Part shown: positions 12,621 to 59,263 of the stretch, in pieces
Layout of the letters: every line of letters begins with the position of its first letter
Position numbering within the stretch: position 1 is the first letter of the stretch
Assembly (NCBI GenBank): GCA_964187785.1
Contig: OZ076409.1
Location: 55,678,001 to 55,742,000, forward strand
Length of the DNA stretch: 64,000 nt
Direction of reading: 5' to 3'
Origin: Amphiscolops sp. MND2022
Taxonomy: Eukaryota
The notes under the pieces: generated by a model
Told to the model about the DNA's origin: nothing
The model's database searches: none
The model's input: only the letters and a program-made list of their open reading frames with translations
Position numbers and translations under genes: made by a program

Positions 12621-13651
12621 GTGGACCGCGCACCATCTATCCGCATCATCTAGTCTCTACAAACTACCAACAACAACGGGAATCAGTATTGTGTTTGTCC
12701 AATCGATGACTCCTTGAGTATTTGTGGAAGACTCGCCGTGCATAGTTCTGGTAGAATATTGTGTTTCGCTTTCCACCGACTTAACCAGTTCATGTCCAGT
12801 CTTGCGAGAGCATTCTCATCCCACTCCGCACCAACTGGGTCCAATGCCGTCGTTTTTCAACGTTTTGTGTTCTTGTTTTTATTTCTGCAATAGCAGAATT
12901 TCTGATTCTGAAACTTCAGATACTTTGTTTGGCAGATATAAATTTCTAAAGCTGCCGACAACAATTTGTTTCTCGTGCGATAGAACGAGCGAGGGGTAGT
13001 TATGTATTCGTACGCCGAATTATTGAGATGAAGCGAACAAGAATAAATCATGTTGAATGTTCGTTTGCCAACAGCTTCGCCTGCATTCAAATCCGATTGC
13101 GAAACTTCTTCTACTCTGAGTGGTTAATTTTTCTTGAGACCGAGGATAATTAAAGGCGATGTAAACTTGTAGTGATTATTGGTGCTCTATTAAATTGATT
13201 ACGATATGCTACGATAGAAAGCAGAAATAGTAGTCTGCCCCGCAGGGGGCTATTTTTGATTTCACCGCGCTCATACTTTGCTGATATGTCTTCTGACTGT
13301 TCTTTGTTCGAGCATTTGTGACTGCATCTACAACATACTTCGTAGCCAGGTCACTTTGTTTTGAACCTGATGCAAGTTCTTGGACGACAGAGTAACGCTG
13401 CTCTTAAGAGTTAGTGTTTTTTTCTGGCGTCCCATTTCTGCCATTATAAACTCTAATTTACCGAGGACCATAACTAAGGTCTAAGGAATGCGATCTAAAG
13501 AAATTTCGTTGCTAAGATCTGAAGAACTAAGATGTAAAAAGCATGCTTCGTAACTAAGGTCTAAACTGCGAAGGACATTTATACTGAACTATCAAAACAA
13601 ACCAAAAGGGGATTTCTAACCATATGGACGTTCTGAAAGCGAAGTATCATA

Positions 13652-13775
13652 ATGTGGGGCATATGCTATGAGTGCGCGCTCGCCCTCACCGTCGCAAAGA
13701 CCAGCTCCAACTACCATCGCTTCGCGATCTCCGTTCGCGCTACGTCTTTGCTCCTGTTCGACCTCGCTTAGCAAG
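13652..13775 (-). repeat. Copy of the shared MITE core, truncated by the gap
   Basis: Reverse complement of cttgctaagcgaggtcgaacaggagcaaagac...catatgccccaca, the core repeated at 21461-26988. Confidence 0.9.
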
Positions 13776-13975
13776 NNNNNNNNNNNNNNNNNNNNNNNNN
13801 NNNNNNNNNNNNNNNNNNNNNNNNNNNNNNNNNNNNNNNNNNNNNNNNNNNNNNNNNNNNNNNNNNNNNNNNNNNNNNNNNNNNNNNNNNNNNNNNNNNN
13901 NNNNNNNNNNNNNNNNNNNNNNNNNNNNNNNNNNNNNNNNNNNNNNNNNNNNNNNNNNNNNNNNNNNNNNNNNNN
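13776..13975. other. Assembly/scaffold gap (200 N)
   Basis: Run of exactly 200 N. Confidence 0.99.
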
Positions 13976-15850: not shown

Positions 15851-18800
15851 CTACGAATTTTTCAAAATTTAAAACTTTTACTCAATTAGTCACTGTAGCA
15901 ACTTGAAAGGATGTGAATGTCTTGGACCTGAACTTTAGCATATTCAATGAACCTGAGATTCTCTGTATCGAAAAGCATCTATCTTTTCTGATCACTGAAA
16001 GGTATCTCTAGGCCTTCCCAGAATCAAATCCACTTTGGCTATTAATACTGACAGCAGATCGTTCAGTCTCATTGCCTCTGACGTTCAAACACTGGACTTC
16101 GAATTTTCCAACTCGCTCTTCTCCTTCGATCAGCGACAATTGTCAAATAGTTCCATTGATGATTGGCTGAAATCCTTTGAAACATTTCTAAATAGATTTT
16201 TGAATCGTAAATGGAACAAGAAAAAGCTACTACCAAGTTATTTGAGTCCACATAACGTCCACATCTTCAATCGCCTACAAACTGAATTAAAACGACTGAA
16301 AAGCTCGGATCGTGTAATTTGGCTTGTCGTTTGCATCAATCTGATCGTACTTTAAACCAGCGAAACGTCCCATGGCTCGGCACATTTTGTTAATCTCAAA
16401 ACCTGTCATGCCACTCTTTCGTGAAATGACCCAATTACCGAAATTGGCTACTGGAGACACTTTTTGGCCAAACCTTCACCTTCAAAGGGAATGTTGATGT
16501 CATCAATCTCCGGCGTAAAGTCAAGGATTTGATTGTTGACCTCGTTGACATTGTCTAATTTGCTTGTCTGCGACGGTCAGCTTTTTCAGCGGTACCGAGT
16601 TGTTGCGCCACTCGTTAGCTGTTGGTCGTGCCAATTCTTTGGCTGCCGAGGACCGTTCTTTCTTGCCATACCTTTGCTTCTGTGGACTTTTGGATAGTGG
16701 TTCTTCATCGGTCTCGGACGAACTGCTGCTAGAATCTGAAGAGCTGGATAAGTGATGTTCACGCCGTTCCTGTGGTGTTGGATTGCAGGAAAGTGTTCTA
16801 GGTGCAGGATTTCTAACAAACTGCTTCTTGTGCACTGGCACTTGCGCGAACAACTCATGTGACTGTGTAATGGCAACCATTCCATTTTGAGTTACAACAG
16901 ACATCAATGTCAAATTGGCGAAGTTTGGTAACCTCCTTCCCAACTGCATTTTGGTTGTCCTGTAGAGTTACAGAAGAGACATTTCGCCTGAGCTAAATTC
17001 AATTTCTGTCGACCGTTTGGTGCTGTTTTGGAGAGAAGTGATTCTATGGGTTGGAAACAAGCCATTGAGTCGTTTGAAGTGTGGTCACGTTTTTGACTAC
17101 TGGTGACTTCTGAAATGACTCATATGAGTCATCATACCGTTACGTAATCATAGCAAGTCGCCTCAACTCCTTGTTGCCTCTCAGTCTAAGGGTTGATTTA
17201 TATGAATAATATAATGTTTCTTCCAAAAAAAGGAATATTAAACAATAGATGAATAAAAACGGAATCGAAATTTTTCCAATATCCCGTGTGGTAAGTTACA
17301 GAGGTCCCCATAAAATAACGGAGTGTTGAGATATGTATCATCCAAATGCAACGGTTTTCTTAACTCGTTGTTCCCCGTAAGTAGGAAAAAACCACTTGCC
17401 TTGAGGAGGTTTGTCAACTCCTACATACGGGAAATGAAACTATTGTATGGCACAACTATTGTATGACCGTCGCAGCCTATCATATCGGTGTTAAACGGTT
17501 TTGGCAATTTTGGCAAAGTTGGTTCGATAAATGGCTCCGATGGTAAGTAGCAAGGTTCAACTCTGTTTAAACTCAGTCGGGTAGGGCCGTTTTTGCATTG
17601 TATCAACACTCTTTTGTCATTGCGTTTCAGAACAGGAAAAGGACCACTGTAGGGTGATTCTAATGGACGCTTAGTACGATCTACTCGAAGCCAAACGTGA
17701 CTGCACTCCTGAAGGTCCCAAGGAACATATTTCTTGTAACCCGAATGGGGAGTCACTGAAGTTGTTGTAAACTGTAATAACAGCAAATGCGTGACCAGTT
17801 TAACAACGTAATCACGAGTGAATGTTTGTCGTAGTTTTCCTTTGAAAATAGTGGGAACAAAAGCATCAAATCCTGTTACCAGTTAAAAATGTGATATTCC
17901 CATGGCATTGAGTAGAATTTTTTGACTGAATAAAATGACCGGTAAGGCTAGAGTCCACGGTAAAGGTGAGGCTGCTAAAGAAACTTTTAAAGATCGGAGG
18001 TACCTTTCGATTTTCCCATTGGCTTGGGGGTGATAAAGTGTAGTACGAAAACGTGCAAAACCAAGCTTTTTTGATAATTCAGCGAACAAATCAGATTCGA
18101 ACTGGCGTATTTGATCGGTAGTAATGTAGCGTGGGACTCCGAATCGCAAAAACCAAGTAGATTTAAACGTTTCAGCAACGACTTCTGCAGTGATAGAGCT
18201 AATGGGAGTAGCTTGTATCCAGTTTCTGAATCGATCGATATAGGAAAGAAAACCTCTATTCGGGCAATTCGACACTGTAGGCAGAGGACCTACTATGTCC
18301 AAACGTAAATGCTGGAATCGGGCTGGATAACCTTCGGTTGTTGCAGGGGCGTTATTGTGTGTCGTAAAAATTTGCTCTTCTGACAGTGTGAACATTCCTT
18401 GCACCGATCCTTCACCGTCTGATCCAAATGCGGCCAGGTTAAACGTGCCGAAATCAGTTTATTAGTTGTTTTCCAGTTCGGATCATGTTGTGAAAGTTGA
18501 GGAACAAGTTTCTCCGCAACTCTGGTGGAACAATTGCGCGGGGAATGAGAGTGATATCAGAGAGTAATTTTATGTCTGGTGGAATAGTAACAATTTTCGT
18601 GCCCTGACTATACACCTGGCACATTTCCTCCTTAAATTCCTGTGTTTACGCTTCAGCAGTTGCCTGTAAATCACAAGAGTCACAAGTTACAGCAGATACA
18701 ATTTTCGGCTGTTGTACACGACACTCTCCTTCTTCGTGTCGCGATAGACAATCAGCTACCACATTGCTGTCACCAGCAATGTGAACAATGTCGTCAAGAA

Positions 18801-21249
18801 ATTCCCACAAGAACGAGCACTGCCCGGATTTTCGAGGGGAGTGGTCGGCTGTTTTTCGAAAGGACGCAGTGATGGGTTTGTGGTCAGTAAAAACGACACC
18901 GTATCTACCTTCAATAATTTGTCTAATTTTCTGTGTTGCGGCAAAAATTGCTGAACGTTTTTTTATCAAAGACAGAGTATTTGCGTTCTGCGACAGATAA
19001 TTTTTGTGAAAATAATGCTAGAAGTACGTTTGTCCCGTGTGTTCTGTTACCGTGTGAAACTCCGCCAATTGCTTTGTCAGAAGCATCTTTGGTGAGAGTG
19101 AGAATACCCTCTGGAGACAAATAATGTAACATGGTACGTTCAGAAAGTTTGTTCTTCACTAACGTGAAAGCTTCATCGTGTAAGGGTTCCCTACGCAGTG
19201 GTGAGTTGTGTGTCAGTAGTCAAATTTGAAGTACGGGATGGCTAACTATTGTTGAGTAAAATTTGGAGAAGTTCGACCATTTCTGCATAATGGGGAACAT
19301 GTTGTCGATGAAGAGAACATTCCCATCATACTTCGCAAAGTTTTGTAACTTGGGGGATGCAGCAATCGTTGAATAGCTTCCACTTTGTCCGCTTTGGGTT
19401 GTAGACCTTCAACAGTGATCAAAAATCCGAGGAATTCGATCTCACTTTTCATCCACTCACATTTTTTGTATAGATCAGCGCAGTCCGTATGGCTTCAGGC
19501 AATCCAAAAACGCTTCGACTTCTTTCAAGTGAGTCGTTATATCGTGTGATGCAATTAGGACGTCGTCCACGAAGATAAAACCCGTATCTAATCCTTGGAA
19601 GACTGTCTTCAAGAAGCATTGGAAAAACTTTTCTGCTTTTTGGAGACCGAATAGCATACGTAGAAATTCAAAAGGGCCAAACGATGTTGTTACAGCAGTT
19701 TTCTGTGCCATCGGGATGTCTTCTGGTATCTGATGATAGGCTTTTACTAGGTCCAACTTACTGAATGTTTTTTTGACATAAAAATTGAAATCCGATTGCT
19801 GTAGAAGTCACCTTTCAGTGAACGAATTTGATCGTCGGTAGTTTCCACAAGGCGTCCAATCGTTATGTTCCTTTTTAGGTGTCATATGCAATGGGTAGGC
19901 GTATTGGCTGCTTGATGGACAACATATCCCGGTTGCTATTATGGAATCGAACCAATTCTTGTCGATTCTATACTTCTCGGTGCACAAACGCGTCGGACTG
20001 CCATACGGGCTTTTACCTGTCAGTAAGATACGATTAGTGTTTGGTGTTGAGCTGTGCTGTTGATATCAACATCATCGAAAACCTCTGTGTTTTCGGTCAT
20101 TATGGATTTCAACTCGTCGTTTCCGATATCCGGTATTACAATCTTGACTTTGTTGACAGAGACATGGTTGCATTTTTTCAATTGAGTTGTAGTGTACAAC
20201 AATGTTGTGTTATCTTTGGGGCGGCCATTTTTGCAATCAATTGAGAAATCGTTGGTAGACAAGAAATTGACCCCAGAAATGTTACACGACACGTCAGCGA
20301 CGAAAAAGGTATGGCTGACGCACCGTCGTAATGAAGGCATTTCAATTGGTATGGTAACTTTTCCGTAAACTTTCAACGCGTCACCTTTGATGGTAGATAG
20401 AACTGCGTTGGAAGGCAGAATAGTAACTGAATGGATTAAATTGGGTTTAACAATGGACAGCATTGATCCGGTGTCTATAAAAAACTTTTGCTGACTGGAA
20501 TTGATAGAGGCAGCAATCTCAATGAATAAATCACCCCAGTGCAAGCTGCCACTACGCTAGGGATTCCTAGTTTGCTGCTGGATTGTTTGGGGTCCCTGGT
20601 CGCGGTGAAGCTTCAATCAACTGCGGTTTCTGACAAGGCCACTTACACCAAGGTATCCAGCGCTTGGCATTGTTTGCATAGAAGACGTGAAATCGGAAAT
20701 CGGTATTTGGCCCGCGCTAAAGGGAAACATCCCTCCCTTTTGCTGTCTGGAAATGGGTTGAAAGATTCCTTTCGGGGAGACAGAGCCATGTTCTGACCTA
20801 GGATAGGGTCTTACTGCTGCTACTTGGTAGTCGACCGTTGAATACTGGTATATCGTGTCTGCAAAATTAGCGAAATCGTCTAAGGCCAAATTCTGATGTG
20901 TGGAAAGGGCAACGCGTGTTGTTGGAGGTAACGCTTGTGAAAAATTGTGACGTAAAAATTTGTCATCGACGGTCAAATGGCGATCTTCTAGTTAGCGCTT
21001 TATGCGATGGAAACAGACTGACGGTTTTTGGCCGTCAAGGGCAGTTGAACTAAAGCCTCCTCCATTAATTCCTGTTGAATTTTTTGGTAGACTCGAGTGA
21101 TCTGCTCCTTTAGAGATTCGTAAGAACTAACGTCCAGTGGGCGGTTGATGGCAACGTCCTCCAGTAATGCGCCAATGACGTGGTTAAACTTTGTTTGGGA
21201 GCTGGTGATAATTGCTAGTGCAAATTGGGACTCGAGTTATCTGAACCAG

Positions 21250-21855
21250 GAAACGGAAACAGTTTGTAGAAAAGCAGTTTGTAGAATCCAGTTTGTAGAA
21301 AAGTGAGATCCAATTTGTAGAAATTTTTTCTACAAACTGGATTCTACAAACTGGTTTTCTACAAACTGGTTAGGTCCAGTACGTAGAATACCAGTTTGCA
21401 GTATTCTGGAATTGAAGAAAAACAATATGACCAAAAATGTAGGAATGGGCAAAGTATAAAACGTGCCTCGGATATGTCCCCAATTCTTCCAGTGCCCTGC
21501 GGCGCCTTGGGCCGCTTACGCTCCCATCTTGCTAAGCGAGGTCGAACAGGATCAAAGACTTAGCGGGAAAGGGGATTGCGAAGCGATCGTAGTGGTAGCT
21601 GGTCTTCGCGACGGTGAAGGCGGGCGTGCGTACACCGGATATGCCCCACATTTCACTTTTTAGATCTTATTCGCTTAGATCTAAGGCAGTGGACCTCTCA
21701 GGATCTTGTGTCAAGAATGCCCTGTTTGCAGAACTTAATGATCCAGTTTGTAGAACTTATTGATCCAGTCTGTAGGAAAAAATCTACAAACTGTAGCACC
21801 TAGAACCAGTTTGTAGAATTCTACAAATTAAAATTCTACAAACTGGACCTAATTC
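21250..21855. mobile_element. MITE arm-type A (ccagtttgtagaa arrays) with shared core, inserted in Gypsy gag
   Basis: Flanking direct repeat tgaaccag (21242-21249 / 21856-21863); removing the insert rejoins gag VWFR|*LESQF. Arms are made of ccagtttgtagaa/ttctacaaactgg; core at about 21461-21650. Confidence 0.9.
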
Positions 21856-22004
21856 TGAACCAGACTTGCGGGTTGCTTCTGTAGCGTGTTGGGGGATTGA
21901 TTGTTATTCTCCCCATTTGAGCATTGTTTGTGCCATCACTGCTGCCTTCGCTAGATAAATGATTATAAGCAGTGGTAGAGTCTTCCAATTGTGTTCGATC
22001 ATCC

Positions 22005-22022
22005 ATCACGTCGGGGTTACCA
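22005..22022 (-). promoter_or_regulatory. Primer-binding site complementary to tRNA-Trp
   Basis: Minus strand reads tggtaaccccgacgtgat, one mismatch from the canonical tRNA-Trp PBS TGGTGACCCCGACGTGAT, and lies at the gag start. Confidence 0.85.
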
Positions 22023-22038
22023 ATTCGTGGGGTCAAAT

Positions 22039-22356
22039 GGTATATGCCCAGTTTGCCGAAACCCAGTTTGCTAAAACTCAGTTTGCCGCAACCCAGTTTG
22101 CCGAAACCCAGTTTGCCGAAACCCAGTTTGCCGAAACCTAGTTTGCCGAAACCCAGTTTGCCGAAACCCAGTTTGCCGAAACCCAGTTTGCCGAAGCCCA
22201 GTTTGCCGAAACCCAGTTTGCCGAAACCCAGTTTGCGGAAACCCAATTTGCCTAATCCGAGGGACACTTTGCCGGATTTTTTTTCGGCAAACTGGGCAAG
22301 GTAGGGACAATTTGCCGAATTCGGCAAACTGGGTTTCGGCAAACTGTCCCATACTC
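22039..22356. mobile_element. Coreless MITE arm-type B with about 14 x 15-bp tandem array (cccagtttgccgaaa)
   Basis: TIR ggtatatgcccagtttgccg / cggcaaactgtcccatactc. 8-bp TSD ggtcaaat/tgtcaaat. Array spans 22047-22256. Confidence 0.88.
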
Positions 22357-22651
22357 TGTCAAATAACAAAAAACAACTGTTTCGTATGAAGGTTAAATTG
22401 ATAATGAACAAATGATAAGAGATAAGAAATCAACTCTATTTATACTAGATGATTGTCCCTAAGGGCAGGATTACGGGTTAGGGACAATTTGCCGGAAGAC
22501 AATTTGCCGAAACCCAATTTGGCGAACGTGAGGACAAATTGCCGAATTTTTTTCGGCAAATTGTCCCTTTGAAATTACCGAGTTTTGTAGAGACAATTTG
22601 CCGTATTCCTGCGTTTTCAAATATCAATGTTTTTGGCCGTCGGATATGCCC

Positions 22652-23152
22652 GGGGCACGGTAATAAGTTCGAACGCATAAGTTCGACTTTTAATTTCGAA
22701 TGAATTAAGTTCGAATTTTTCAAAAACCGGAACAAGTTCGAATCACAGCGTTCGAATTTTGAACTAAGTCTAAAGCGTGCCTCTGATATGTCCCCATTTC
22801 CTCTAGTGCCCTGCGGCGCCTTGGGCCGCTTACGCTCCCATCTTGCTAAGCGAGGTCGAACAGGAGCAAAGACTTAGCGGGAAAGGAGATCGGAAAGCGA
22901 TCGTAGTGGGAGCTGCTCTTTGCGACGGTGAGGGCGAGCGTGCATACACCGGATATGTCCCACACTTCAGTTTTTAGGTTCCTTTAGATCCTAGGCGGTG
23001 GAGCTCTCAGGATCTTGTGTGAAAGATGTCCAGGTTACACTGGATCTTCCGGATATGGAAATTGTAACTTTGTGTCTCGAAACTATTCCATTCGAATTTA
23101 TTGCACTAGTTCAAATTCGAACTTAGTAAAAACGAACTTATTGCCCGAAGCC
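22652..23152. mobile_element. Nested MITE arm-type C (aagttcgaa) with shared core
   Basis: TIR ggggcacggtaataagttcg / cgaacttattgcccgaagcc. TSD atatgccc/atgtgccc; the duplicate carries exact atatgccc at 25012-25019. Confidence 0.85.
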
Positions 23153-23209
23153 ATGTGCCCCCGTTTCCTCTAGTGCTCGCGGCCCCTTGGGGCCGCCTAT
23201 GTTCTTATC

Positions 23210-23718
23210 GGGTGGGCGGAAATAGGTCGTAATAACGCGATTGAAAAAAGAGTAAGTCTTCGGGTCGACATACCAATTGTTCGAAGGGGATGGAAACAAC
23301 TCGGATCGAAATATTGATTTTTGGGAAACAAATTGAATTGCCGCAGAAATAAATTTCTAGAAAAATATAAAACGTGTCTCGGATATGTCCCCATTTCCTC
23401 CAGTACCCCGCGGTCCCTTGCGACCGCCTGTGTTCCCATCTTGCTAAGCGAGGTCGAACAGGAGCAAAGACCTAGCGGGATTGGAGGTAGCGAAGCGATC
23501 GTTGTGGGAGCTGGTCTTTGCGACGGTGAGGGTGAGCGTGCAAACACAGCATATGCCCCACATTGTGATAGTCAATCGACTTGAGGCAAACAAAAAACGT
23601 TTTCGACTAAAAGGCTTCGATCAAATTCGACCACATTCCATTCGATCCCTGCAAGTTGATCAAATGATTCGACCTCTGTCCTTTTGACCAGAAAAATTTG
23701 ACCTATTTACAGCCACCC
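23210..23718. mobile_element. Nested MITE arm-type D (aataggtcg/ttcgacc) with shared core
   Basis: TIR gggtgggcggaaataggtc / gacctatttacagccaccc. 9-bp TSD, exact gttcccatc in the duplicate (25060-25068 / 25937-25945). Confidence 0.88.
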
Positions 23719-24024
23719 GTTCCCATTTTGCTAAGCGACGTCGAACAGGAGCAACGACCTAGCGGGAACGCAGATCGCGAAGCAACCGTAGTGGGAGCTG
23801 GTCTTTGCGACGGTGAGGGCGAGCTTGCATACACCGTATATGACCCCATATTAAGTGAGGGGAAGTACCTAATCTATTTCAAACGCTTCGCAGGAGCAAA
23901 AACCGGATACGGGACATTTTGCCGAAACACAATTTGCGGAACGTGAAGGACAATTTGCCGAAAATTATTCGGCAAATTGTCCCTGAGTCAATTTTCAGCA
24001 AATTGTCCCGTATCCCGGGATTAC

Positions 24025-24321
24025 ATTCTAAATCCTTCGGACTGAGAGAAGCCGTAGCAATTTTTTTTCAGGAATTGTCAGATCGTGAACAAGGTTAATA
24101 ATTGCTTTGACATTGGTAACGGAACGGGTCTCAAAGACAGACTTCTCTGCGATATGTGGAGACACTTCGATAACCAGTTCGACGAAGACAACTCTTGTAC
24201 ATGGTTAAGGGTGTGCGACTGTGGACAATGTAGAAACATGGGACAAAGGTGTTAGAAAGAATTTGGGAGCCATCCCATCAGTGAATAGCTGAAAATCCAC
24301 ATCAACAACAACAACAACAAA
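24025..24321 (+). mobile_element. 3' end of a LINE with (CAA)n tail (duplicate about 26237-26533)
   Basis: Encodes HFDNQFDEDNSCTWLRVCDCGQCR, resembling the Cys-rich ORF2 C-terminus of CR1/L2-group LINEs, followed by a short UTR and a (caa)n tail. Confidence 0.6.
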
Positions 24322-24460
24322 CGGTACCATTAAACCATTCCTTTCGGACGTAATCGTTCCTTTTGGACGGTAACCGTTCCTTGTGGCCGTTCCTTTTGGA
24401 CGGTACTTTTCCTTTTGGACGGTGACCATTCCTTTAGGACCGTTCCACTGCTTATGGGGA

Positions 24461-25011
24461 GGTATGGAACCAGTTGGTAAAAAACCAGTTTGTAGAATCC
24501 AGTTTGTAGAAAAATGATGCCCAGTTTGTAGATTTTTTTTTCTACAAACTGGATTCTACAAACTGGTTAGGACCAGTTTGTAGAATACCAGTTTGTAGAA
24601 ATCTGGAATTGAAAAAAAACAATAAGACCAATATTGAAAAAATGATGCAAAGTACAAAACGTGCCTCGGATATGTCTCCCCTTGGACCGCTTATGTTCTT
24701 ATCTTGCTAAGCGAGTTCGAACAGGAGCAAAGATCTAGCGGGATAGGAGATCGCAAAGCGATCGTAGTGGGAGCTGGTCTTTGCGACGCTGAGGGCGAGC
24801 GTGCATACACCGGATATGTCCCACATTTCAGTTTTTAGATTCCTTTAGATCCTAGGCGGTGGAGCTCTCATGATCTTGTGTGAAAGATGTCGTTTACACC
24901 GGATCTTACGGATATGAAAATTGTTACTTTGTGTCTCTATACTATTCCGTTCGAACTTGTTGCACTAGTTCAAATTCGAACTTAGTAAAAACGAACTTAT
25001 TGTCCGAAGCC
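24461..25011. mobile_element. Chimeric MITE: type A left arm + core + type C right arm
   Basis: The left arm and first core half match 26673-26930 (same core deletion, gagttcgaac, gatcgcaaagcgatc). The second half and right arm match 22941-23152. Confidence 0.85.
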
Positions 25012-25068
25012 ATATGCCCCCGTTTCCTCTAGTGATCGCGGCCCTTTGGGGCCGCTTATGTTCCCATC

Positions 25069-25936
25069 GGGTGGGCGGAAATAGGTCGTAGTAACGCGAT
25101 CGAAAATCAGAGTAAGTCTTTGGGTCGACATACCAAATTTTTGAAAGGGATCGAAACAACTCGGATCGAAATATTGATTGTTGGGAAACAAATCGAATTG
25201 CCGAGGATAGAATTTTCTAGGAAAGTATGAAACGTGTCTCGGGTATGTCCCCATTTCCTCCAGTACCCCGCGGCCCCTTGCGACCACTATGTTCCCATCT
25301 TGCTAAGCGAGGTCGAACAGGAGCAAAGACCTAGCGGAAACGGAGATCGGGAAGCGATCGTAGTGGGAGCTGGTCTTTGCGACGGTGAGGGTGAGCGCGC
25401 ATACACAGCATATGCCCTACATTAAGATAGTCAATCGACTTGAGGCAAACAAAGAACGGGTGGGCAGAAATAGGTCGAAGGAACGGGATCGAAAATCAGA
25501 GTTAGTCCTCAGGTCGACAATACCAAATTTTTGAATGGGATCGAAACAACTCGGATCGAAATTTTTATAACGTAGTCAGATATGTTCACATACCCCTAGT
25601 GCCCTGAATGCAGGAGCGAAGCGAAGCGGAGCGACGTGCCATATGGCCATGCCTCAATGTTGCTACTTGGCGAAGGGAGCGAAGCGACCGAGCCATACAA
25701 CAAATACGATAAAATTCGACCGCATTCCATTCGATCCCTGTAATTCGATCAAAAGGTTCGACCTCAGTCCTTTCGACCAGAAAAATTCGACCTATTTACA
25801 GCCACCCACAAAGAACGTTTTCGACCCGAAGGCTTCGATCAAATTCGACCACATTCCACTCGATCCCTGCAACTCGATCAAATGGTTCGACCTCTGTCCT
25901 TTCGACCAGAAAAATTCTACCTATTTACAGCCACCC
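25069..25936. mobile_element. Type D MITE (duplicate) containing a further nested type D element at 25458-25807
   Basis: Outer TSD gttcccatc. Inner TSD acaaagaac (25449-25457 / 25808-25816). The empty site is present in the paralogous copy at about 23589-23600. Confidence 0.9.
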
Positions 25937-26672
25937 GTTCCCATCTTGCCAAGGGAACAGGAGCAACGACCTAGCGGGAACGCAGATCGCGAAGCAACCG
26001 TAGTGGGAGCTGGTCCTTGCGACGGTGAGGGCGAGCTTGCATACACCGTATATGACCTCATATTAAGTGAGGGGAAGTACCTAATCTATTTCAAACGCTT
26101 CGCAGGAGCAAAAACCGGATACGGGACATTTTGCCGAAACACAATTTGCGGAACGTGAAGGACAATTTGCCGGAAATTATTCGGCAAATTGTCCCTGAGT
26201 CAATTTTCAGCAAATTGTCCCGCATCCCGGGATTACATTCTAAATCCTTCGGACTGAGAGAAGCCGTAGCAATTTTTTTTCAGGAATTGTCAGATCGTGA
26301 ACAAGGTTAATAATTGCTTTGACATTGGTAACGGAACGGGTCTCAAAGACAGACTTCTCTGCGATATGTGGAGACACTTCGATAACCAGTTCGACGAAGA
26401 CAACTCTTGTACATGGTTAAGGGTGTGCGACTGTGGACAATGTAGAAACATGGGACAAAGGTGTTAGAAAGAATTTGGGAGCCATCCCATCAGTGAATAG
26501 CTGAAAATCCACATCAACAACAACAACAACAAACGGTACCATTAAACCATTCCTTTCGGACGTAATCGTTCCTTTTGGACGGTAACCGTTCCTTGTGGCC
26601 GTTCCTTTTGGACGGTACTTTTCCTTTTGGACGGTGACCATTCCTTTAGGACCGTTCCACTGCTTATGGGGA

Positions 26673-27171
26673 GGTATGTAACCAGTTGGTAGAAAACCAG
26701 TTTGTAGAAAAATGATGTCCAGTTTGTAGATTTTTTTTCTACAAACTGGTTAGGACCAGTTTGTAGAATTCTGGAATTGAATATAAACGACCAATTTTGA
26801 AGAATTGATGCAAAGTACAAAACGTGCCTCGGATATGTCCCCCCTTGGGCCGCTTATGTTCTCATCTTGCTAAGCGAGTTCGAACAGGAGCAAAGACCTA
26901 GCGGGATCGGAGATCGCAAAGCGATCGTAGTGGGAGCTGGTCTTTGCGACGGTGAGGGCGAGCGTGCACACACCGGATATGCCCCACATTTCAGTTTTTA
27001 GATATTTTTTTTAGATCTTAGACGGTGGACCTCTCAGAATCTTGTTTGAAGGATGTCCAGTTTGTAGAATTTAGTGCTCCAGTTTGTAGGATTCAATGAT
27101 CCAGTTTGTAGGAAAAAAATTCTACAAAATGGACCACCTAGGAATAGTATTCTACAAAGTGGACCTATTTC
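26673..27171. mobile_element. MITE arm-type A with shared core, about 370 bp upstream of the SLC45 start codon
   Basis: TSD tatgggga (26665-26672) / tataggga (27172-27179); ccagtttgtag arm arrays; core at about 26822-26988. Confidence 0.85.
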
Positions 27172-27537
27172 TATAGGGAAGCATTTTCAGATATCCATTG
27201 TTAGTAGGTTACAAATGTTTTGATGTATTTGTAAAGTGTTTCATTTCAGAGGATCATTGTGTGAAATAGATGTTTAGAATTTCGACGTTTTCGGATTTCT
27301 AAGATAGTTTTAGATTGGTGAACGCGCTGTAATTGCTCTACCTGAGTGGCTCTTCGATTTATCCCTATTTTCACATATATTCTATCAATTCTTTCAGAAG
27401 GCAATGAAAATAACACGCAGTAGTTACCGATCTCAATCATGACATCAATGTTCAAGATCAGCAGATGTCTTTTCAATCGTTGAAGTGTTTGGAAGACTCT
27501 TTGGTGCAAAAACGTCAGTGTTCATTTGGCCAATAAA

Positions 27538-33700: not shown

Positions 33701-36700
33701 CTGAAGCTTGAGTACGAGGACACGGAAATGGGGTCATTATTTATTTGTGAAATTACTAGAAGTTTTGCTACGTAGCCCAGCTGTTGGGTGTCTTTTTGAA
33801 TCACGTTTCAGCTATATATGGAGCTTCAATGTTAGGTTGATCTTGTTTGTGAAGTGGTTAACGGTACTTTGTTTCGACAGATTGTGATCATGGTTTTGAT
33901 GCCTTCCTCGCTGACCATGATAACCATGTCAATATTCCCTGGATTCTTCATGGGCGCCATGCTGTCTGTGCCTTTCAATCTGGTCAGCAAATATCACGAT
34001 TACGAAAATGTTAGTCTTCACTACTTTTCTGTCAAGCTGTCTCTTTCTAAGCAAGTTGTAATAAAGTATAAAAAGTGAAGTATAAAGAAAGAAAAGTTGT
34101 AATAAAAGATGAAAGAAAGCAACTCTACTTTGAAGAAAGTTTTCTTTCCTCTGTTGTTTAAAGTCTGCAACGAAACCTGTTATTGAATCCTTGGGTCTAA
34201 ATAAACTGAAACGTTTTTGTGAGCCGTTCTAATCATGTGAAACTCATTTGGGGACCTAATGTTGTTTTGAGTGATCATAGAGTACACTGTATCCCAATGT
34301 TTTTGCATTTTCGGCTTGAACGTTTTGAAAATGTTGGAAAACAAGTTGTCAAGCTTTTCCTGATTTTGTTTGTATCCTTTATTGTGTCATCGGCCTTTTT
34401 ATCATTTTGTTATTCGATGGTAAAAATATCAAGAATATTTTGAAAGAAAGTAAAAATAAGGCAGCATCCTTCACTAAAGTGTTGCTTGCTTTATGATATA
34501 TATGCAAAAAATAAGGGTTGACTCAGAAATGTGGTTTCAGAATGCGTGCCGCTTCAAGAAATCTGATTTATGGTTGTCTGACATCTTTGTCATTCAAAAC
34601 TTCAGGCTTAAGGCCTTTCAAATCTCTCATTTTTGCGCTTTGGATGCATTGAAGAAAAGTTAATTGTGATACCTCTTTAAACCGTATGTTTTCCGCTGGT
34701 TGCGGATGCGAAAATAGATTTTTAAATTAATCATAACCTCCCCTCACTGCGATATTTGCAGGAAATACTTGTTGAGTTTTTTTGAAGTTTCAAGTGACGT
34801 CAATGAGTACAGCAGCTTGTTTTGAATCCAATTACTATAATTACCACAAAAATAATCCATAAGACTTTTCCATCAATATGACGTTCAAAATTATATTGCG
34901 TTTACTGCTAAAAATGAATAATTTGTTACGCGATTTTTTTGTGTGAGTTCTGTGTCGTTGAGTATTTGACGGTGATTTTGTGCGCACAAAACATGTTTCC
35001 TGGGCTTAATATGTAGCGTTTTGCATGTGCGTATAATAGTTTAAATAATTTATCAATTCGTATTCGTAACCAAAGGTTTCTACCATTTGTTTTATCAGAG
35101 TTAATCCAATTTGTGACTTGGCTGTAACAGCACTCAATTTTGTTCTGTTTTAAAATCGGCTGTTTTGTCCCATTTTGAAAATCGGCTGTTTTTTCCCGTT
35201 TTAAATTGGCTGTTTAGTCCCGCTCCCAATTTTTAGTTCTATTTTCTTGTAGTATGACTCTGCTTCATTTCATTTTAGAAATTTTTGACGAATTTTTTTT
35301 AATTTGAAAGCTTTGTGTAATAAATTTTAAATTCATGACAATGAACAATCCGGGGACGGCATAAGTCGGCGCCATATCTGAGGCTCAAAAATAGCAAAAG
35401 GACTTCAAAGTGTCAAGTATTCTTTTACAGTACTTGAAAAACCAAAAGTTGGAGCGAATTGGCGCAAGGGCCCTTTCGGATTTTTTAACATCCATTGTTG
35501 CAAAGCGTCAAAAAAGTTTCGATTCGATCTCTCCACAAATTCTTGTAAATACCAGTGAAGCATTCTTTTGATGATGGTCTTTTTTCGATTCTAGTACGAC
35601 TCGATATGCTGGGTATGCACTCCACTCTCAGGTTCCACAAAATTAACCGAATGATTGACGGTTTTGTGTTCCAACCCCATCCGCATAATCCCTCGGTAGG
35701 CCCGCCATTCATCAGTATGAACTACGGATCCTGGCTCCACAACTGAATTGATAATCGGCAATAACGTTTCAGTATCCCTTGTATCGACCATTTCCATGTA
35801 GCCTATAGCCGGACTAGTGCTTGTATCCACAATCCCGAAAACCCATTGCGTTTTTTGTGGGCCTCGACCACGACGATGTTTCGGTTTATGTGAGAAACAA
35901 CTTTCATCGGCTTGTACAATCACGCCCGGGCCCCCCAACCGGATAGGGTTTCTTGGCAAATAACGGTCGCAAATTTCTCAGGCACGCAAAAGCATTAATG
36001 ATAGCATACTCAGAGAGGCCGGTTTGCAATTGAGTCTGTTCGTTTGAAGTTTGTATTGACCACAGGTAAATTAAATGTAGCTATTCTGGTAACTGAATAT
36101 TGCTTTGGGCGAAAAAACTTCCCGTGCGAATGGAAAAAATACTTCTGTATTTCGCACAATCTCCATTTTGACACTTCCAGCCAAAACCATAATTGACTTT
36201 TTATATCTTGTCCAAAACAGACGATTTTTGCAGATGGGACAATTTAAACTTCGTGGGAAAATGCCCAACTTTTTGAATTGTTGAATGCAAAGTTCGTTGT
36301 TTTGTAATTATGGAAGTATGTCCGTTTGGAAGCACATTTGTATAATGATTGATTTTAACTGTCAATCAATGGAAAAGATATGATTATGTCGACATCAACT
36401 ATATTCAATGTGATGTCGACTTAATTCCTTTAAAACTGGTATTTGAACCTTCTGTATTATCCCCCCCGCCGCAGTTTAGGGGGGGGGGGGGTAGATGACA
36501 TGGTCCAAAATATTTTTCGAAAAAAGTCTCACAATGCCGAAAAAAAACTAAAAGGGGACCCTTTGGCATTTTTCCTTATCCATTCTGTCGCCAAACATCA
36601 AAAAAATTGAAGGGGACCCTTTGAGGAAAAAAAATCGAAAAAGTTGCACAATGCCGATAAAAAACTGAAAGGGGGGACCCTGTAGTCCCGCCCAGTACTG

Positions 36701-39700
36701 TACGTGACGCGGAAAAACTTTTTTGGTTGATTTCGCTAGGCCAAATAGTTCAATTTGACCCCATAAAATTTGGTAGAACTTTTATAGAACTGTTTTGGTC
36801 AGTTCGTGTGGATTGAAAAAAAGAGTCACTATAAAAGTCGCGTTTCACTTCATGAAGCGCCGACTAAAAATGGGCATCTTCTGCAAACTTCTTTCACATT
36901 AATCGCTGTTATAACGAAGAAATGAGAGATTTAAAATGGATGCCATGTTGATAATTTTTAGACTGAATCAAAGAGTGTAGAAGTTATTTGACCTTTAGAC
37001 CTATGTGACTTTTAGAAGATATGGGCCTTTCTGAATAGACTAACATCAGGTATATCTGATTGTATTATACGAATTTTCTTATACATTGTTTGTTTTTATC
37101 TGTTGCCATCTAAATAATTGGCATATCCATGTTTTAGCGACTGGCAAGTACTTGAAATTGACCAAGACCTTATATTTTTCTTTTCTTTACCTCCTTTCCT
37201 TTAATTATTTAATTTGTTTTGTATTGGATTAATGTGAATGGTTAACGGTAATTGTGAATAATAGATACATTGGGGGTTTCATGTTTGGCAATGGGGTCAG
37301 CCGATTTCTCGGAAAATAATAATTGGTTTTTTCACTAACCAAGTTTGAGTTTAACTTTTCAGTTACATCCTTATACTACCATGTTGATGAATACAGAAGA
37401 TATTGTGCATAATTTAGAAAGTACTGCAAATGATAATTGGTTTCTCGGTAGATTAAGTTTCCGACTTTTGGTAACGCAATAAAATTGTCTCAAAATTTTC
37501 AAACAATGACTATTTTATTCATAAAATCCTTTTCTTTCATAAAATGAAAGAAATACGATGAATTGGATCATTATTATTTATTCTATCATTAGCTATATAT
37601 TTTAATGTGCTCATTATTGAATTATTTTCTAGGCTATCGAATAATGATTTGCAGCATGTTTCTTCGTATTCAAAATCCGACCTATTGCTTTTTCGGTCTG
37701 CTGCAATTTCGATCCCAACTATACCACGCAACAAAATCAATGGCACAAACTTTAAAACGTGGTTATTCGGAACGGTTAATTATGATAGGTTCTCCTTTGT
37801 TATACAACAACCAATGGTTAATGCGTTTATTATGCTTAAAAACCAGTTTCAAAAACGAAGTGTCATACGAAGAGGCGCAATCTGAAGCCACCCAACGTGG
37901 CAAATTTTGCGACCAAGTGTGATAAGCTAACTATACTGTATGAGTTTGGCTGTAGATATTGATGTTTTTCAGAAAAAAAATTTTCTAGGCGGTCCATATA
38001 ACCCAATTTGGCCAAATTAATCCACGGCCATACATTCAAACTAGCTGAAAGGAGTGGACATACCAAGAAAATGTCTACCAATGTGGGCATACCATACAGC
38101 GTCGACTAAAAGCGATCGTGTTGTGACTTTTGACTAATTGATGGTGATTTCAAAGGAGTGAACGCAAAAAAAAACATTTTAGTTTTTGCGTTATCTTTAG
38201 TTTGAATGCTTCCAGATAAACTTGAACTTTCGGAAACTATTCCTGGAATTGACAGATGTGATTCTGCAAATATTCACAAGAGAAATAATCCTAAAAATTT
38301 TATGCGGAATGAAGAAGTAACACCGATCCCCGAGGTGGCTGATTTCTAACCTAAAATTTAAGCCAAACTCATTCTCTCCCAACATGATGTCTTTGAAGAT
38401 GTTTCAAATTGATGGTATATAATCATTGGGCAATTGGGTTCCAATAAAAACAAGCTGTGAAGGGCTCAAGCCTGTACCCTTCCTAATGCTCAAAGAGCGC
38501 AAATAGTTTTCAGGGAAGGCTGATGTGTTGTTTTTAGTGGCCGACTATTGACTAGATTTTTCCATGAGAGCTTTCTGATAACTTTCAAAAGAATAACCTC
38601 ATAAGGCTATCACTTTGTTTGCAAAAGTAGGGGAGACCAAAGTGTCCTTCTTTAAAAATTATGAACAGCTTTGCTCTTTTGGAACCTTGAGCGGGGCACC
38701 GATTTAGGCCGTTCCCGACTTGTTTTGCTTTGAAGTTTTCCTTCAAATGAATTTGAAACCGAAATCCAATTTGACACTGCAAATTCAAAAGTTATAGTTT
38801 TTTATTGTTTCTAATTTTATTGTACACTTGCAATGCCGATGTCTGGAAGAAATGAAATAACCAGCTCCTGTTTCGCATTTTTCGAGGCAAATTGTTTTTT
38901 TTTCAATGACTGCAGTGAAGTTTCCATGAAATCTAAATTGGTTGTAATAAAATGGCTACGCCAGATTTGAAATGACAAAACGTGACACTTAACCATGTGT
39001 CATTTCAAAAGAACACTCTTGTGGGAATTCACTTTGGTAAAAAAGGAAGCCACCAATTTGCGTGTGATTCCATTTTCTTTTACTTTCGTTCAATACATCT
39101 CTCGCCAGTTGTGTGGTTCCCTACTCGAACACATGCGGTTTATAAAGTGAAATGAAAATCTGCTATAGAATTGGTTTTCAAAAGAAATTTTAATTTCATT
39201 GAGTGCCCGGCGTTGCCACGTGGACTGCCGCCGCTGTATGATGTCTCCTCGCAATGAAATGCGCAATTTTGTACCGTTTCTGTGCTCATGTCCATGCAAG
39301 ACTAACTTTCTGCTCTTTGCTCAAAATGTGAAGTGATCAGATGTTTAAACATGTTTTGATTTCTATCAATTTGTTTGGAAAAAAATTCCTTTATCCAACC
39401 CTTGAAGGGATATTTACAGTGGCCTTTATTACAACATAAACAAATATTCTGCTGTTTGAAAATTAGATGTGTATTACATTGTGTCTGTATGACGTTCCCC
39501 TAGTTTTCAATATAGTTTTTTCAGGTTTTTGACCTTTTGTTTGGCCTTCTCTTGACACTTCAACTCGCTCTTACTTTTCATCATGAATAGTTCGTTTTTA
39601 TTGGCCGGCAGTCGAATGATTTTTGCTGCAAAACTTGGAAATCAAAATTTTTTGTCTTCTATCAATTTATATGAAGATGATGAAGTTTGAGAGATTTTAT

Positions 39701-42700
39701 TAAAGTTACGTAAATTATGGTTTGTACCATTGTTATTTTCATCTGAAATCACGGACAATGCCATGAATGTTTTTCAAAACATTACTGTTGAGTTTTTGCA
39801 AGACCTGGTGGCTATAAAAGTTTTTCAAAAATTGCTAGAATAAATGTTCCATTGCGCACTATTTACCGGTGGATTACCGCGGTTGAGGAATAAACTGTAC
39901 AGTGTAATGGATCGGTCAGTATATGCACAGAGAGCAGTGTTGGAAAAAAATCGGATTTTTATTTTAAAAAATCAAAAAATCGGATTTTTTTATTCAAATC
40001 GGATTTTTTTTATTTATATCGAAATCACCTACAGTGTTAGTCTGAAAACATTTTCACTACGCAACCTTCCATAATTCAGAACATACACTTAGAAAGCATA
40101 ATATAATACTTCAAAATCATCGGGACATGTTCAGGGTTTTCAGAAGGAAAACCAGCTTTGCTGATTTTTCCACTCCTGGGCGATTACAAAAATTTCAAAA
40201 ATACAAAATTTCCATTTCCTTCACTATATACAGATATACACTAAAAATAAATCAACCAGAAGGCTTTGATTTAAATCTTGATTTTAATCGGATTTTTACT
40301 GTTGATTTAAATCAATTGATTTAAATCAGCCAACACTGTCAGAGAGACTTGATTTGGTTGCATCCAGATTGAGATCAGCGCCGCAGTTGGGCCCTTTACT
40401 CGACAGTCTTAATGTTGAAGAATACTTCTTTCTACATTGGGTATAGTCGGCGTTCAATAAACAAGCCGGTACCGGCCCAAGTCGGCGCCATACCTAAGTC
40501 TCAAAAATAGCAAAAGGACTTCAAAGTGTCAAAGTGTTGGTGAATTGAGACCCTTTGGTGAAATTTTTAGGAGTCGGAAAAAATTTTCGACTACTTATGC
40601 AATCGTGTTGTTTTTTTTTCTCCCGACCTTTTCATGAAAATTTCAAATTTCTCAAAAACTGTCCATACGATTTCAATAAAATTTTGCACAGTCATTCTAC
40701 ACCGAAAGGGGCCCCTGCGTGCGCAATGGCATCAAAATCGTATGACTGGGTTGTGAGAAACATAGCCAAAATTAGCCCAAAAATGGCCGAAAAACAGCCA
40801 TTTTTCGACTTTTTTCGATTTTCTCAAAAACTGTCCATACTATTCGAACGAAATTTTCTACAGTTATTCTACACCATATTAGAGTCCTATATGTGCAATG
40901 GCATCAAAATCGTATGGCTGGGATGTGAGAAACATAGCCAAAATTAGCCCAAAATGGTCAAAAAAAGGGCCATTTTTCGACTTCAGAAGGAAAAAGACCT
41001 AAGCCGACTCCTTTACCGCACATGCGGCTCTGGTTTTTTCTCCCGACCTTTTCATGAAAATTTCAAATTTCTCAAAAACTGTCCATACGATTTTCACGAA
41101 ATTTTGCACAGTCATTCTACACCCAAAGGGGCCCCTGCGTGTGCAAAGGCATCAAAATCGTATGGCTGGGATGTGAGAAACATAGCCAAATTTAGCCCAA
41201 AAATGGCCAAAAAACAGCAATTTTTCGACTTTTTTCGATTTTCTCAAAAACTGTCCATACGATTCGAACGAAATTTTCTATAGTTATTCTACACCATATT
41301 AGAGTCCTATATGTGCAATGGCATCAAAATCGTATGGCTGGGATGTGAGAAACATAGCCAAAATTAGCCCAAAAATGGCCGAAAAACAGCCATTTTTCGA
41401 CTTTTTTCGATTTTCTCAAAAACTGTCCATACGATTCGAACGAAATTTTCTACAGTTATTCTACACCATATTAGAGTCCTATATGTGCAATGGCATCAAA
41501 ATCGTATGGCTGGGATGTGAGAAACATAGCCAAAATTAGCCCAAAATGGTCAAAAAAAGGGCCATTTTTCGACTTCAGAAGGAAAAAGACCTAAGCCGAC
41601 TCCTTTACCGCACATGCGGCTCTGGTTTTTTCTCCCGACCTTTTCATGAAAATTTCAAATTTCTCAAAAACTGTCCATACGATTTTCACGAAATTTTGCA
41701 CAGTCATTCTACACCCAAAGGGGCCCCTGCGTGTGCAAAGGCATCAAAATCGTATGGCTGGGATGTGAGAAACATAGCCAAATTTAGCCCAAAAATGGCC
41801 AAAAAACAGCAATTTTTCGACTTTTTTCGATTTTCTCAAAAACTGTCCATACCATTCGAACGAAATTTTCTACAGTTATTCTACACCATATTAGAGTCCT
41901 ATATGTGCAATGGCATCAAAATCGTATGGCTGGGATGTGAGAAAATTAGCCCAAAAATGGCCAAAAAACAGCCATTTTTCGACTTTTTTCGCTTTTCTCA
42001 GAAACTGTCCATACGATTCGAACGAAAGCGAGTCAGAAGGAAAAAGACTTAAGCCGACTCCTTTACCGCATATGCGGCTCTGGTTTTGAGTCTCACAATG
42101 TCGAAAAAAAACTGAAAGGGGGAGACCCTTTGCAATTTTTCAACATCCATTCTGTCGCAAAACTGCAAAACAATTGAAGGGGGATCCTTTAGGCAGAAAT
42201 TTTTTCGAGAAAAAAGTCGCACAATGCCGAAAAAACAAAGGGGGACCCTTCAATGTGTGTGTGTGTGTGTTTGTTGAAGCTCCCGTCTTCGACCGTTAAG
42301 CCGCAGTCGTCTGGATCTTTCCAGAGGCACGAAGATATTCAATGACGAATTTCGAGTTTGTCCATAATATTTCGAGGTTTGGGTTTGGGCCAAATAATTC
42401 CAAGCGTTTTCGTTCATTCATTGGGCATTTCAGGAGTGCGTGTTACAGATCATCTGTTTTGCCGCATTCGCACTTGTCTGAGTCGTCAATTCCTATGCGG
42501 TATTTGTAGCTTCGCAGCATAGGGCAGTGGCCGCCTTAGTCAGTTTTTGTCAGTTCCTTTCTGGTTTGACGGTGTGTTCCCTGCTGGTGGGATATTTTCG
42601 TGGTTGATTGATCTTCTCCAATTTTGTGTAATGCTTCGTTTGATAGCTGCCTGTGTCGAGCGGTTGTAGTGTTTGGTCTAGTCTAGTGGCAAGCCGGGCT

Positions 42701-54998: not shown

Positions 54999-55357
54999 AA
55001 CAAGCCAGGACCGGCCCAAGTCGCCGCCATATCTAAGGCTCAAAAATAGCAAAGTGACTTCAAAGTGTCAAAGTATTCTATTCTACAGCACCCGAAATTT
55101 TTTGAAATAGTCTCACAATGCCGGAAAAATACTGAAAGGGACCCTTTGGTCTCGTCCGGTACTCTTTATGTGCGGGAAACTTTTTTTGCTTCAGTTCCTT
55201 AGGCCAACGGCTACAATTTGGCCTCTTCTTGAAACTTTGTAGAACTCTTTATAGAACTATTTTGGTCACTTCAGGTGTATCGAAAAAAATTAAAAAACAC
55301 TGACGAAAAGCCATGACTACAGTCGACTCTTTTCCTAAGGAAAGCGCCGACTAAAAA
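54999..55357 (-). mobile_element. HINE family A (complete short copy)
   Basis: aacaagccaggaccggcccaagtcgccgccatatctaaggctc ... agtcgactcttttcctaaggaaagcgccgactaaaaa. Confidence 0.85.
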
Positions 55358-59222: not shown

Positions 59223-59263
59223 GTTGATTAATTCACCGTTGAAATCAAACCCATTTCTTGAAA

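Follow-up and report, generated by a model that had tools for sequence, protein, structure and literature searches.

In the 64-kb stretch of DNA analysed here (the window), foldback-type MITEs of several arm families were found to share one interior of about 190 bp, the core. We consider it likely, with a probability of roughly 0.58, that the core is a passenger spread by recombination and by insertion of kin elements, because it offers these elements a common block of homology for recombination and is located where kin keep landing. This explanation does not require the core to have any function, and it leaves unexplained the sharp stop of homology at the two direct repeats of the core.

Using BLASTN, we detected nine core matches of at least 125 bp in the window, each with an E value of 4e-27 or better. 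Eight are inside 21250-27171 and one is on the minus strand at 13651-13775, which agrees with the eight plus one copies counted in a preliminary description of this DNA. The copies are not all independent, however, since three of the eight in the cluster are products of a local tandem duplication, and the independent carriers come down to six (A1, B2, C, D1, A3, and F). The B2 core accounts for the matches at 23718 and 25936, both of which are 3' pieces of it. An 11-bp direct repeat with a spacing of 167-168 bp was found in the core, and the homology of all carriers stops at or near it. A and C remain homologous for about 70 bp past the core, the A1 and C interiors being identical at 230/258 positions, and B diverges within the 5' end of the core.

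Seven complete elements were delimited in the cluster, all on the forward strand, and every one has its own 8- or 9-bp TSD, as previously proposed (9 bp in 3/7). Their ends were selected after scanning several hundred start-end pairs; the chance of such TSD matches from random flank pairs is 3.5e-5 to 0.014. A1 (21250-21855, core 21461-21652) is an A-arm MITE with an 8-bp TSD (8/8), and each of its arms contains inverted motif runs of the hairpin type in the motif map. B1 (22039-22356; 8-bp TSD, 7/8) is a hairpin mini-MITE without the core, built from a 15-bp array (13.7 units by TRF) whose motif is between those of A and B2 and which aligns to the arms of both. B2 (22475-24015; 9-bp TSD, 8/9) is a B-arm MITE whose two arms also match each other in direct orientation (63/71), and whose core is split by the inserted C and D1 into pieces at 22641-22651, 23153-23209, and 23719-23852. 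The C-arm MITE C (22652-23152, core 22776-22964) has landed at the 5' copy of the direct repeat in the B2 core, carries the 3' tail common to A, and has an 8-bp TSD matching at 7/8 positions, or at 8/8 when compared with the duplicate copy. D1, a D-arm MITE (23210-23718, core 23372-23564), has a 9-bp TSD matching at 6/9 positions, and its duplicate (25069-25936, core 25232-25423; TSD 9/9) contains D2 (25458-25807; 9-bp TSD, 9/9), which landed some 35 bp downstream of a core. D2 has D arms, identical to those of D1 at 88/103 and 91/101 positions, around another, weakly core-like interior (best match 15/17). Finally, A3 (26673-27171, core 26822-26990 with a 23-bp deletion; 8-bp TSD, 7/8) is an A-arm MITE nested in an E element. 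The E arm, a 19-bp array, is located at 24320-24460 with its duplicate at 26532-26672, both on the forward strand; the A element interrupts E, which resumes past 27171, and in the database ORF P0217 an E arm runs into a core. On the minus strand, F (13464-13775) consists of a fifth arm type (13464-13600) and the 3' part of a core (13651-13775), and is cut by a 200-N gap; in the database ORF P0037, the F arm comes after a core. All 14 ends of the complete elements start with G, with the first arm motif in identical register in 14/14. Without nested inserts, the elements measure 318-606 bp, and 12-16 of the terminal 20 bp are inverted. As expected of MITEs, they are short, TIR-bounded, TSD-flanked, devoid of coding capacity, and present in many copies.

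Four different arm families had been described previously. The C and D arms indeed do not align with A or B, but A and B proved to be related, and E and F have to be added, giving at least six arm types in the window (A-F), with further types in database copies. The alignments of the A1 left arm with the B1 and B2 left arms beat all 200 shuffles, and the arms of A, B1, and B2 grade into one another, with repeat periods of 14-15 in A and B and different unit numbers among A copies. In contrast, pairs among the A/B, C, D, and F arms scored 22 at most, and 2-198 of 200 shuffles matched these scores. Most arm types do not align, which is not what a single gradually diverged arm family would give. 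The core behaves differently from the arms: its identity is 82-93% between arm families and 89% within one, and over a 123-bp block it reaches 93% for A3-C and 92% for A3-D1, against 89% for A1 and A3, whose arms are alike. In a core tree in which the B2 sequence was short of one base, the A-arm cores formed one clade in only 1% of 200 bootstraps.

Four of the seven insertions are nested in kin elements, and a tandem duplication on the forward strand covers 22770-24655 (unit 1) and 24655-26818 (unit 2). At the duplication junction lies a hybrid (24461-25011, forward strand) made of an A left arm, a core, and a C right arm. Its diagnostic sites shift from A to C at about 24745-24839, which places the crossover inside the core. 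With its unmatched arms and lack of a TSD, this hybrid is evidence of exchange and not of a mobile product.

We then looked at core copies in public assemblies, with the translated core in one frame as a query, a 67-codon open frame being present in D1. One search gave 272 matches to this frame, and 243 unnamed ORF calls were analysed among the matches listed (150 of the 272, and 120 of 141 longer ones). The evidence from these ORFs is indirect: the flanks are short, one-frame translations, the exemplars for their classification were picked by eye, and P0041, if not further ORFs, was misassigned; moreover, one locus may recur across assemblies, and the 50%/90% clustering over-represents odd flanks. 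Both flanks were usable in 136/243 ORFs and both sides could be classified in 66, where 18 left-right combinations were found. Among the listed ORFs, 8 tails were found with the 5' class U1 and 7 with U3, the A/C, D, F, and G1 tails occurring with either class, a distribution that a tree free of exchange cannot yield. In addition, 20/243 ORFs have a core directly bordered by the outer end of an element of the B, C, or D family, in 16 distinct combinations of family, position, and side. Together, the 18 flank combinations and these abutting ends support an exchange of arms around the common core. The previously suggested swapping of arms is thus sustained by the hybrid, the tree, and the flank combinations, but not the functional cis module attached to it, nor the improved MITE propagation proposed as an alternative, since nothing that we tested shows a function. 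Window arms were natively oriented on both sides in only 2/243 ORFs, and both were matched (B-B and D-D). Class U4 places another arm type right at codon 1 of the core in 17 ORFs, of which 15 have a single 3' class in common; judged by eye, this arm forms a full hairpin, as would fit an invader that became an arm. Pattern scans of metagenomes gave 0 matches, and a prokaryote scan gave 5, each spanning no more than 20-30 bp and explicable by chance.

These observations suggest how the passenger could spread. Each arm family would have its own transposase to bind and mobilise it, with the arm motifs serving as binding sites as in Muta1, where subterminal repeats strengthen transposase binding (PMC5499845). 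Linkers, tails, and arms would be reshuffled by exchanges in the core, arising from unequal crossover or from template switching in gap repair, and hairpin mini-MITEs like B1 landing beside the core may supply a new end. A matching pair of ends could then mobilise the core as a composite.

To define the identity of the core, several candidates were considered. Across six copies, 0/50 predicted pairs were compensatory, the folding stability was not unusual (z -0.17), and neither ARAGORN nor Rfam at gathering threshold gave any match, so that a structured, SRP-like, or tRNA-derived RNA was rejected. The 65 weak Rfam E-value matches correspond mostly to miRNA-type models on hairpin arms. A protein-coding fragment was also rejected: pN/pS was 0.68 (Fisher p 0.19), no Pfam match was found for the core frame or for any of the 36 ORFs scanned out of 243, and all 120 listed longer matches are unnamed ENA calls without domains, so that the ORFs were taken as spurious calls on repeat copies. 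A Helitron or Helentron end, suggested by a hairpin beside a CTRR, was rejected as well, since homology continues past it and the carriers have TSDs.

A less probable explanation is that selection maintains the core as a cis element, either a transposition enhancer or a pair of repeats acting as preferred targets that recruit arms, so that the families acquiring it amplify faster. The arrest of carrier homology around the 11-bp repeat speaks for it, as does the TSD of C, which falls on that repeat. Near the 5' edge of the core in database copies, 10/12 B, C, or D junctions fall within the 6 codons covering the repeat (p 0.0009), as do 7/9 distinct events (p 0.012), both tests being post hoc; a clustering p of 1 in 200000, also post hoc, was left out of the support. 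The authors of the coral CMITE study proposed a role in transposition for their own core, as a proposal only (PMC2872659). Contrarily, junctions are not significantly denser at the core than in adjoining MITE DNA (p 0.32 with 243 ORFs, p 0.11 with 150), the tests of pairing, folding, and coding reported above were negative, the coreless B1 and D2-type elements moved as well, with good TSDs, and the TSDs of A1, B1, B2, and D2 are unlike the repeat. Doubtful too is a parasitic role, in which the core would be a landing cassette flanked by two copies of a target site that several foldback transposases prefer, drawing mini-MITEs to its edges, being carried off between them, and, with no ends of its own, switching each time to the transposase family then active.

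It is improbable that the core moves on its own, as a SINE-like or small DNA element that inserts into MITEs. Its fairly fixed ends with a terminal direct repeat, a TATA-like stretch ahead of it, a T run after it in A and C, and the 42 singletons among 93 unmatched flanks of at least 20 aa are what such an element could leave. However, no common TSD around the core was seen in 5 hosts, where only the internal repeat was found, and the lack of tRNA and Rfam matches, the homology shared by A and C beyond the core, and the divergence of B inside its 5' end do not fit either. Rather than unique insertion sites around a free-standing core, the flanks form recurring classes: 76/122 usable 3' flanks fall in 11 classes and 64/84 usable 5' flanks in 5.

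Very improbable is descent from one ancestral family whose arms diverged fast while the interior was inherited vertically without exchange. The graded A, B1, and B2 arms, the G start and common register of all 14 ends, and the B tail occurring with the B linker in 11/12 classified cases agree with it. The four-way combinations of 5' and 3' classes, a core identity between families equal to that within a family, the crossover inside the core, and the D arms found with two interiors (arms 85-90% identical, interiors barely aligning) contradict it as a full explanation; at a deeper level, the arms are probably related in this way. Most improbable is an artefactual origin of the mosaics, including the duplication and the hybrid, in the assembly of a high-copy repeat, for although the 200-N gap begins inside core F, the unique spacer of the duplication is 0% diverged over 445 bp against 4-12% in most repeated parts, and another near-identical tandem duplicate lies at 3077-6845, the matched TSDs around seven elements require true junctions, the differences between units are mostly substitutions, and identical arm-core joins are seen again in independent long contigs.

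As for the enzymes that moved the arm families, Mutator-foldback transposases are our somewhat favoured candidates, Merlin transposases are possible with lower probability, and others are unlikely. hAT and P elements have 8-bp TSDs only and characteristic termini. A preference for Merlin had been expressed from the G-starting TIRs with tandem subrepeats, the 8-9 bp TSDs, and a relic in the window; this broken transposase is real (35525-36340, minus strand; Pfam DDE_Tnp_IS1595, PF12762, E 4e-19), but no link between it and the arms was detected: it gave no BLAST match to the cluster at E 0.5, and its candidate 5' end compared with 7 arms did not rise above shuffles. The Merlin superfamily has 8-9 bp TSDs, as do the elements described here, along with terminal GG and tandem repeats near the ends of many families (PMC8101967); of the 14 ends here, 10 start with GG and all with G. 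Mutator foldbacks match the ends at least as well. Muta1 makes both 8- and 9-bp TSDs (PMC5225508, PMC5499845), and here the related ends of B1 and B2 gave 8 and 9 bp, respectively. As in Muta1/Muta5 and Tm1/Phantom, a short terminal motif is followed by 9-15 bp subterminal tandem repeats in variable number (PMC5225508, PMC5499845, PMC3169594). Tm1 has asymmetric 7-bp termini and then GGA (PMC3169594), and GGA occupies positions 8-10 in 3/4 B1/B2 ends. In contrast with our elements, the non-autonomous Mutator-foldback copies presented in the cited parts of these papers share ends and have heterogeneous interiors (PMC5225508, PMC5499845, PMC3169594). No MULE domain was found among the 8 window ORFs scanned, and no autonomous partner was found for the cluster.

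The reversal of the usual MITE pattern, first taken as unprecedented, is known from the CMITEs of Acropora, where six families resemble one another more in the interior than in the TIRs (Wang et al. 2010, PMC2872659), as is the case here. In the portion of that paper used here, one element has the interior of another family, tandem arrays occur, and the origin of the core is unexplained (PMC2872659). CMITEs belong to the piggyBac type and measure about 100 bp, of which the core takes 75 bp; their TIRs are 13-14 bp long and their TSDs are TTAA (PMC2872659). Our elements, by contrast, measure 500-600 bp, have arms built as repeat arrays, and combine TSDs of 8-9 bp with a core of 190 bp; their TSDs and G-starting ends, unlike the TTAA/piggyBac motif, show that they are not CMITE members. 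In open-access full text, a scope outside which Dfam, Repbase, and subscription journals fall, CMITEs were the only direct precedent. HCD (CORE-type) SINEs are alike in principle, with a conserved central domain and interchangeable partner-specific ends, but they belong to the retrotransposons and combine a tRNA head with tails that derive from LINEs (PMC11481361), features not found here. In rice and maize nested multimers, MITEs prefer MITEs as insertion sites and self-insertion is known, while the part of the review consulted describes no interior common to families (PMC5172404). The architecture is therefore known from coral, and the clues to mechanism, namely kin inserting into the core and a visible crossover point, are absent from that precedent.

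How families with different ends come to share one interior was left open in the CMITE paper, as far as its cited part goes (PMC2872659). With at least six arm types, nesting, and a visible crossover, a passenger core can be tested against a selected one from one assembly. Repeat libraries based on common interiors would merge unrelated transposase families here. Finally, if ends are swapped routinely, non-autonomous DNA elements can persist after their transposase partner is gone, like conserved-domain SINEs changing LINE partners.

We searched the window by BLASTN for the ~190-bp core and found nine copies of at least 125 bp, eight between 21250 and 27171 and one at 13651-13775. The recurring core of the preliminary description, including its count of eight, was thus reproduced, but these copies are not all independent, because a tandem duplication spans 22770-26818, with its junction inside a core, and because the core of element B2 (22475-24015) is interrupted by two others, C (22652-23152) and D1 (23210-23718). 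There are six independent carriers, named after their repeat-array arms: A1 (21250-21855), B2, C, D1, A3 (26673-27171) and F (13464-13775, minus strand). A gap of exactly 200 N (13776-13975) begins within the F core, the assembly breaking at a core copy. A flanking-repeat scan recovered 8- or 9-bp TSDs for seven elements, namely A1, B1 (22039-22356), B2, C, D1, D2 (25458-25807) and A3, B1 being core-less and D2 carrying D arms with an interior other than the core. All 14 element ends start with G, and the arm motif nearest the terminus lies in a common register at every one of them. Immediately left of the cluster lies an LTR-retrotransposon with broken reading frames (17421-20991, minus strand; integrase Pfam rve E 1e-6, RT- and protease-like by eye).

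Then, cores and arms were compared. Identity among the six cores, measured over 123 bp aligned without gaps, is 82-93%, and the A3 core matches those of C (93%) and D1 (92%) better than that of the same-armed A1 (89%). The core tree (nine rows), a check proposed in the preliminary description, was star-like: of 200 bootstrap trees, 1% united the three A-left rows (one of them a hybrid copy), and A1 grouped with C at 89/89, under the tool's strong-support mark. Since three of four pairs of A and B left arms scored over all 200 shuffles, these arms are a single graded family with B1 intermediate, while alignments between the A/B, C, D and F arms gave no convincing excess over chance in the shuffle comparison. 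Of the four different arm families first described, C and D stand apart, and A and B do not. The D2 interior (25563-25704) is a multi-copy type among database ORFs and matches the 5' end of the core at 26/31 positions; it is possibly an older paralogue of that core. A structured RNA was rejected for the core, without Rfam or tRNA match, with 0 compensatory pairs among 50 predicted and a folding z of -0.17, and so was coding constraint (14 synonymous versus 31 non-synonymous changes, pN/pS 0.68, p 0.19).

The hybrid, at 24461-25011, has a left A arm and a right C arm, and its diagnostic sites are A-like up to 24744, mixed until 24839 and C-like thereafter. Its flanks were mismatched in the TSD check, which makes it a junction left by recombination and not a copy that transposed. 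The spacer of 445 bp that separates the duplicated units (24016-24460 versus 26228-26672) is 0% diverged, the B right arm 1.2% and all other parts 4-12%; this contrast could stem from a recent conversion tract, from a haplotype mosaic or from the assembly. A 1883-bp tandem duplicate with 2 mismatches (3077-4959 and 4963-6845), either very recent or an assembly duplication, contains a piece related to the 172-bp and 420-bp higher-order tandem repeats at 40614-42027.

Insertions into kin account for four of the seven in the window: C and D1 lie within the B2 core, D2 lies ~35 bp past a D core, and A3 interrupts an element with an E-type arm (26532-26672, the duplicate of the arm at 24320-24460), whose sequence resumes on the other side. 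Nested MITE multimers are described in rice and maize (PMC5172404). In the database ORF P0217, the E arm runs into a core; the E-armed element of the window has perhaps lost its own, because the DNA past A3 (27194-27275) resembles the downstream flank of the database core copy P0005 (E 7e-7). The cluster ends ~370 bp upstream of a likely MFS-type transporter gene (27538 onward, exons to about 48729, plus strand; weak Pfam MFS_2 match in a later exon), which we take to be SLC45-like, and open chromatin may therefore contribute to the clustering.

To look at further copies, the 67-codon open frame of the core was used as a single-frame query against predicted ORFs, giving 272 (150 among the matches listed), and a search for longer ORFs gave 141 (120 among the matches listed, 93 of them new). 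Where a source was given, these were ENA calls without names or Pfam domains, and most were singletons located on long contigs. We read them as spurious ORFs on further core copies; since they have flanks like the window arms, the source is probably the same species or a close one. Flanks were analyzed for 243 ORFs among the matches listed, as single-frame translations with short flanks and exemplars chosen by eye, where one locus is possibly repeated across assemblies and clustering favours odd flanks. In this sample, automatic calls, some of them loose, assigned 47 natively oriented flanks to arms or tails of the window elements (20 to B, 11 to D, 8 to C, 6 to A and 2 to F). Among the first 150 ORFs listed, 25 flanks form a cluster that marks an additional arm type missing in the window, and smaller clusters hint at yet more. 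Recurring classes took in 76/122 3' flanks and 64/84 5' flanks among the matches listed, a length filter having dropped very short tails; the core thus mostly travels within larger elements. Among the matches listed, 136 ORFs had both flanks usable and 66 were classified on both sides, in 18 combinations; two 5' classes each combine with A/C, D, F and G1 tails (G1 being another recurring flank type), a pattern that cannot arise without exchange inside or at the core.

We consider that the core is most likely a passenger, with a probability of roughly 0.6. The arms would bear transposase-binding repeats, by analogy with Muta1, where such binding was shown (PMC5499845). The core would be a common homology block for unrelated families, through which crossovers and template switches would reshuffle modules, and nested hairpin mini-MITEs would supply new ends. 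In one 5' class, among the matches listed, 17 ORFs have a new arm immediately adjoining codon 1 of the core, and 15 of these share one 3' class, as would be expected of an invading hairpin mini-MITE turned arm. The main rival, a core selected as enhancer or preferred landing site, is a tentative possibility to which the sharp homology limits and a 5' junction peak point. Among the matches listed, a B, C or D outer end adjoins the core in 20 of 243 ORFs (16 distinct family/position/side combinations); near the 5' edge, 10/12 junctions (p 0.0009) and 7/9 distinct ones (p 0.012), both post hoc, lie on the terminal direct repeat of the core, where the C insertion also sits. Junction density at the core showed no significant excess over flanking MITE DNA in these 243 listed ORFs (p 0.32). 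An independent SINE-like core is improbable: in five hosts the core showed no TSD of its own, the sole repeat found being core-internal (11 bp, direct, copies 167-168 bp apart), and flanks recur in classes. Pure vertical divergence fits slightly worse still; D1 and D2 have arms 85-90% identical and interiors with only short matches in common, and rate differences alone cannot produce both this pattern and that of a shared core with different arms. An assembly artefact is the least probable explanation.

The proposed Merlin link gained no support. The Merlin transposase relic at 35525-36340 (minus strand) is genuine by Pfam match, but a sequence search revealed nothing in the cluster that resembles it, and the candidate 5' end of the relic matched none of seven arms better than shuffles. 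The defining features of Merlin are terminal GG and TSDs of 8-9 bp (PMC8101967); the TSD length is shared here and GG occurs at 10/14 ends. Aedes MULEs also have 8-9 bp TSDs, with 9-15 bp subterminal repeats (PMC5225508), and Tm1 has asymmetric 7-bp termini, then GGA, and ~14-bp repeats (PMC3169594), GGA being present at three of four B-type ends here. We lean slightly towards Mutator-foldback, Merlin being the less probable of the two, and file the elements under neither. A solo 26-bp x 3.4 array (35138-35227) ends like a GG-start foldback arm, and no partner end was found in the window. Also present in this eukaryotic DNA are a Tc1/mariner-like transposase relic (45838-46797, minus strand; Pfam DDE_3 E 6e-5, below cut-off), a 605-aa gag-like ORF (59243-61060, plus strand; zinc-knuckle-like motifs by eye, weak DUF1759), perhaps reminiscent of acoel retroelements, and several diverged copies of an unrelated dispersed repeat family (35339-35439, 36509-36871, 42089-42250, 52632-53002, 54998-55358, 57304-57619).

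Coral CMITEs are described as conserved in their interior and divergent in their TIRs, with one hybrid as well as tandem arrays, their authors leaving the origin open (PMC2872659). In the open-access literature, a search for follow-up work led back to that paper alone, and searches for the architecture yielded no further case. The window elements have neither TTAA nor piggyBac ends and, by that description, are not CMITE members, although the system works like them. The conserved-interior architecture is thus already known from corals, and what is new here is a different superfamily, more families and visible exchange events.
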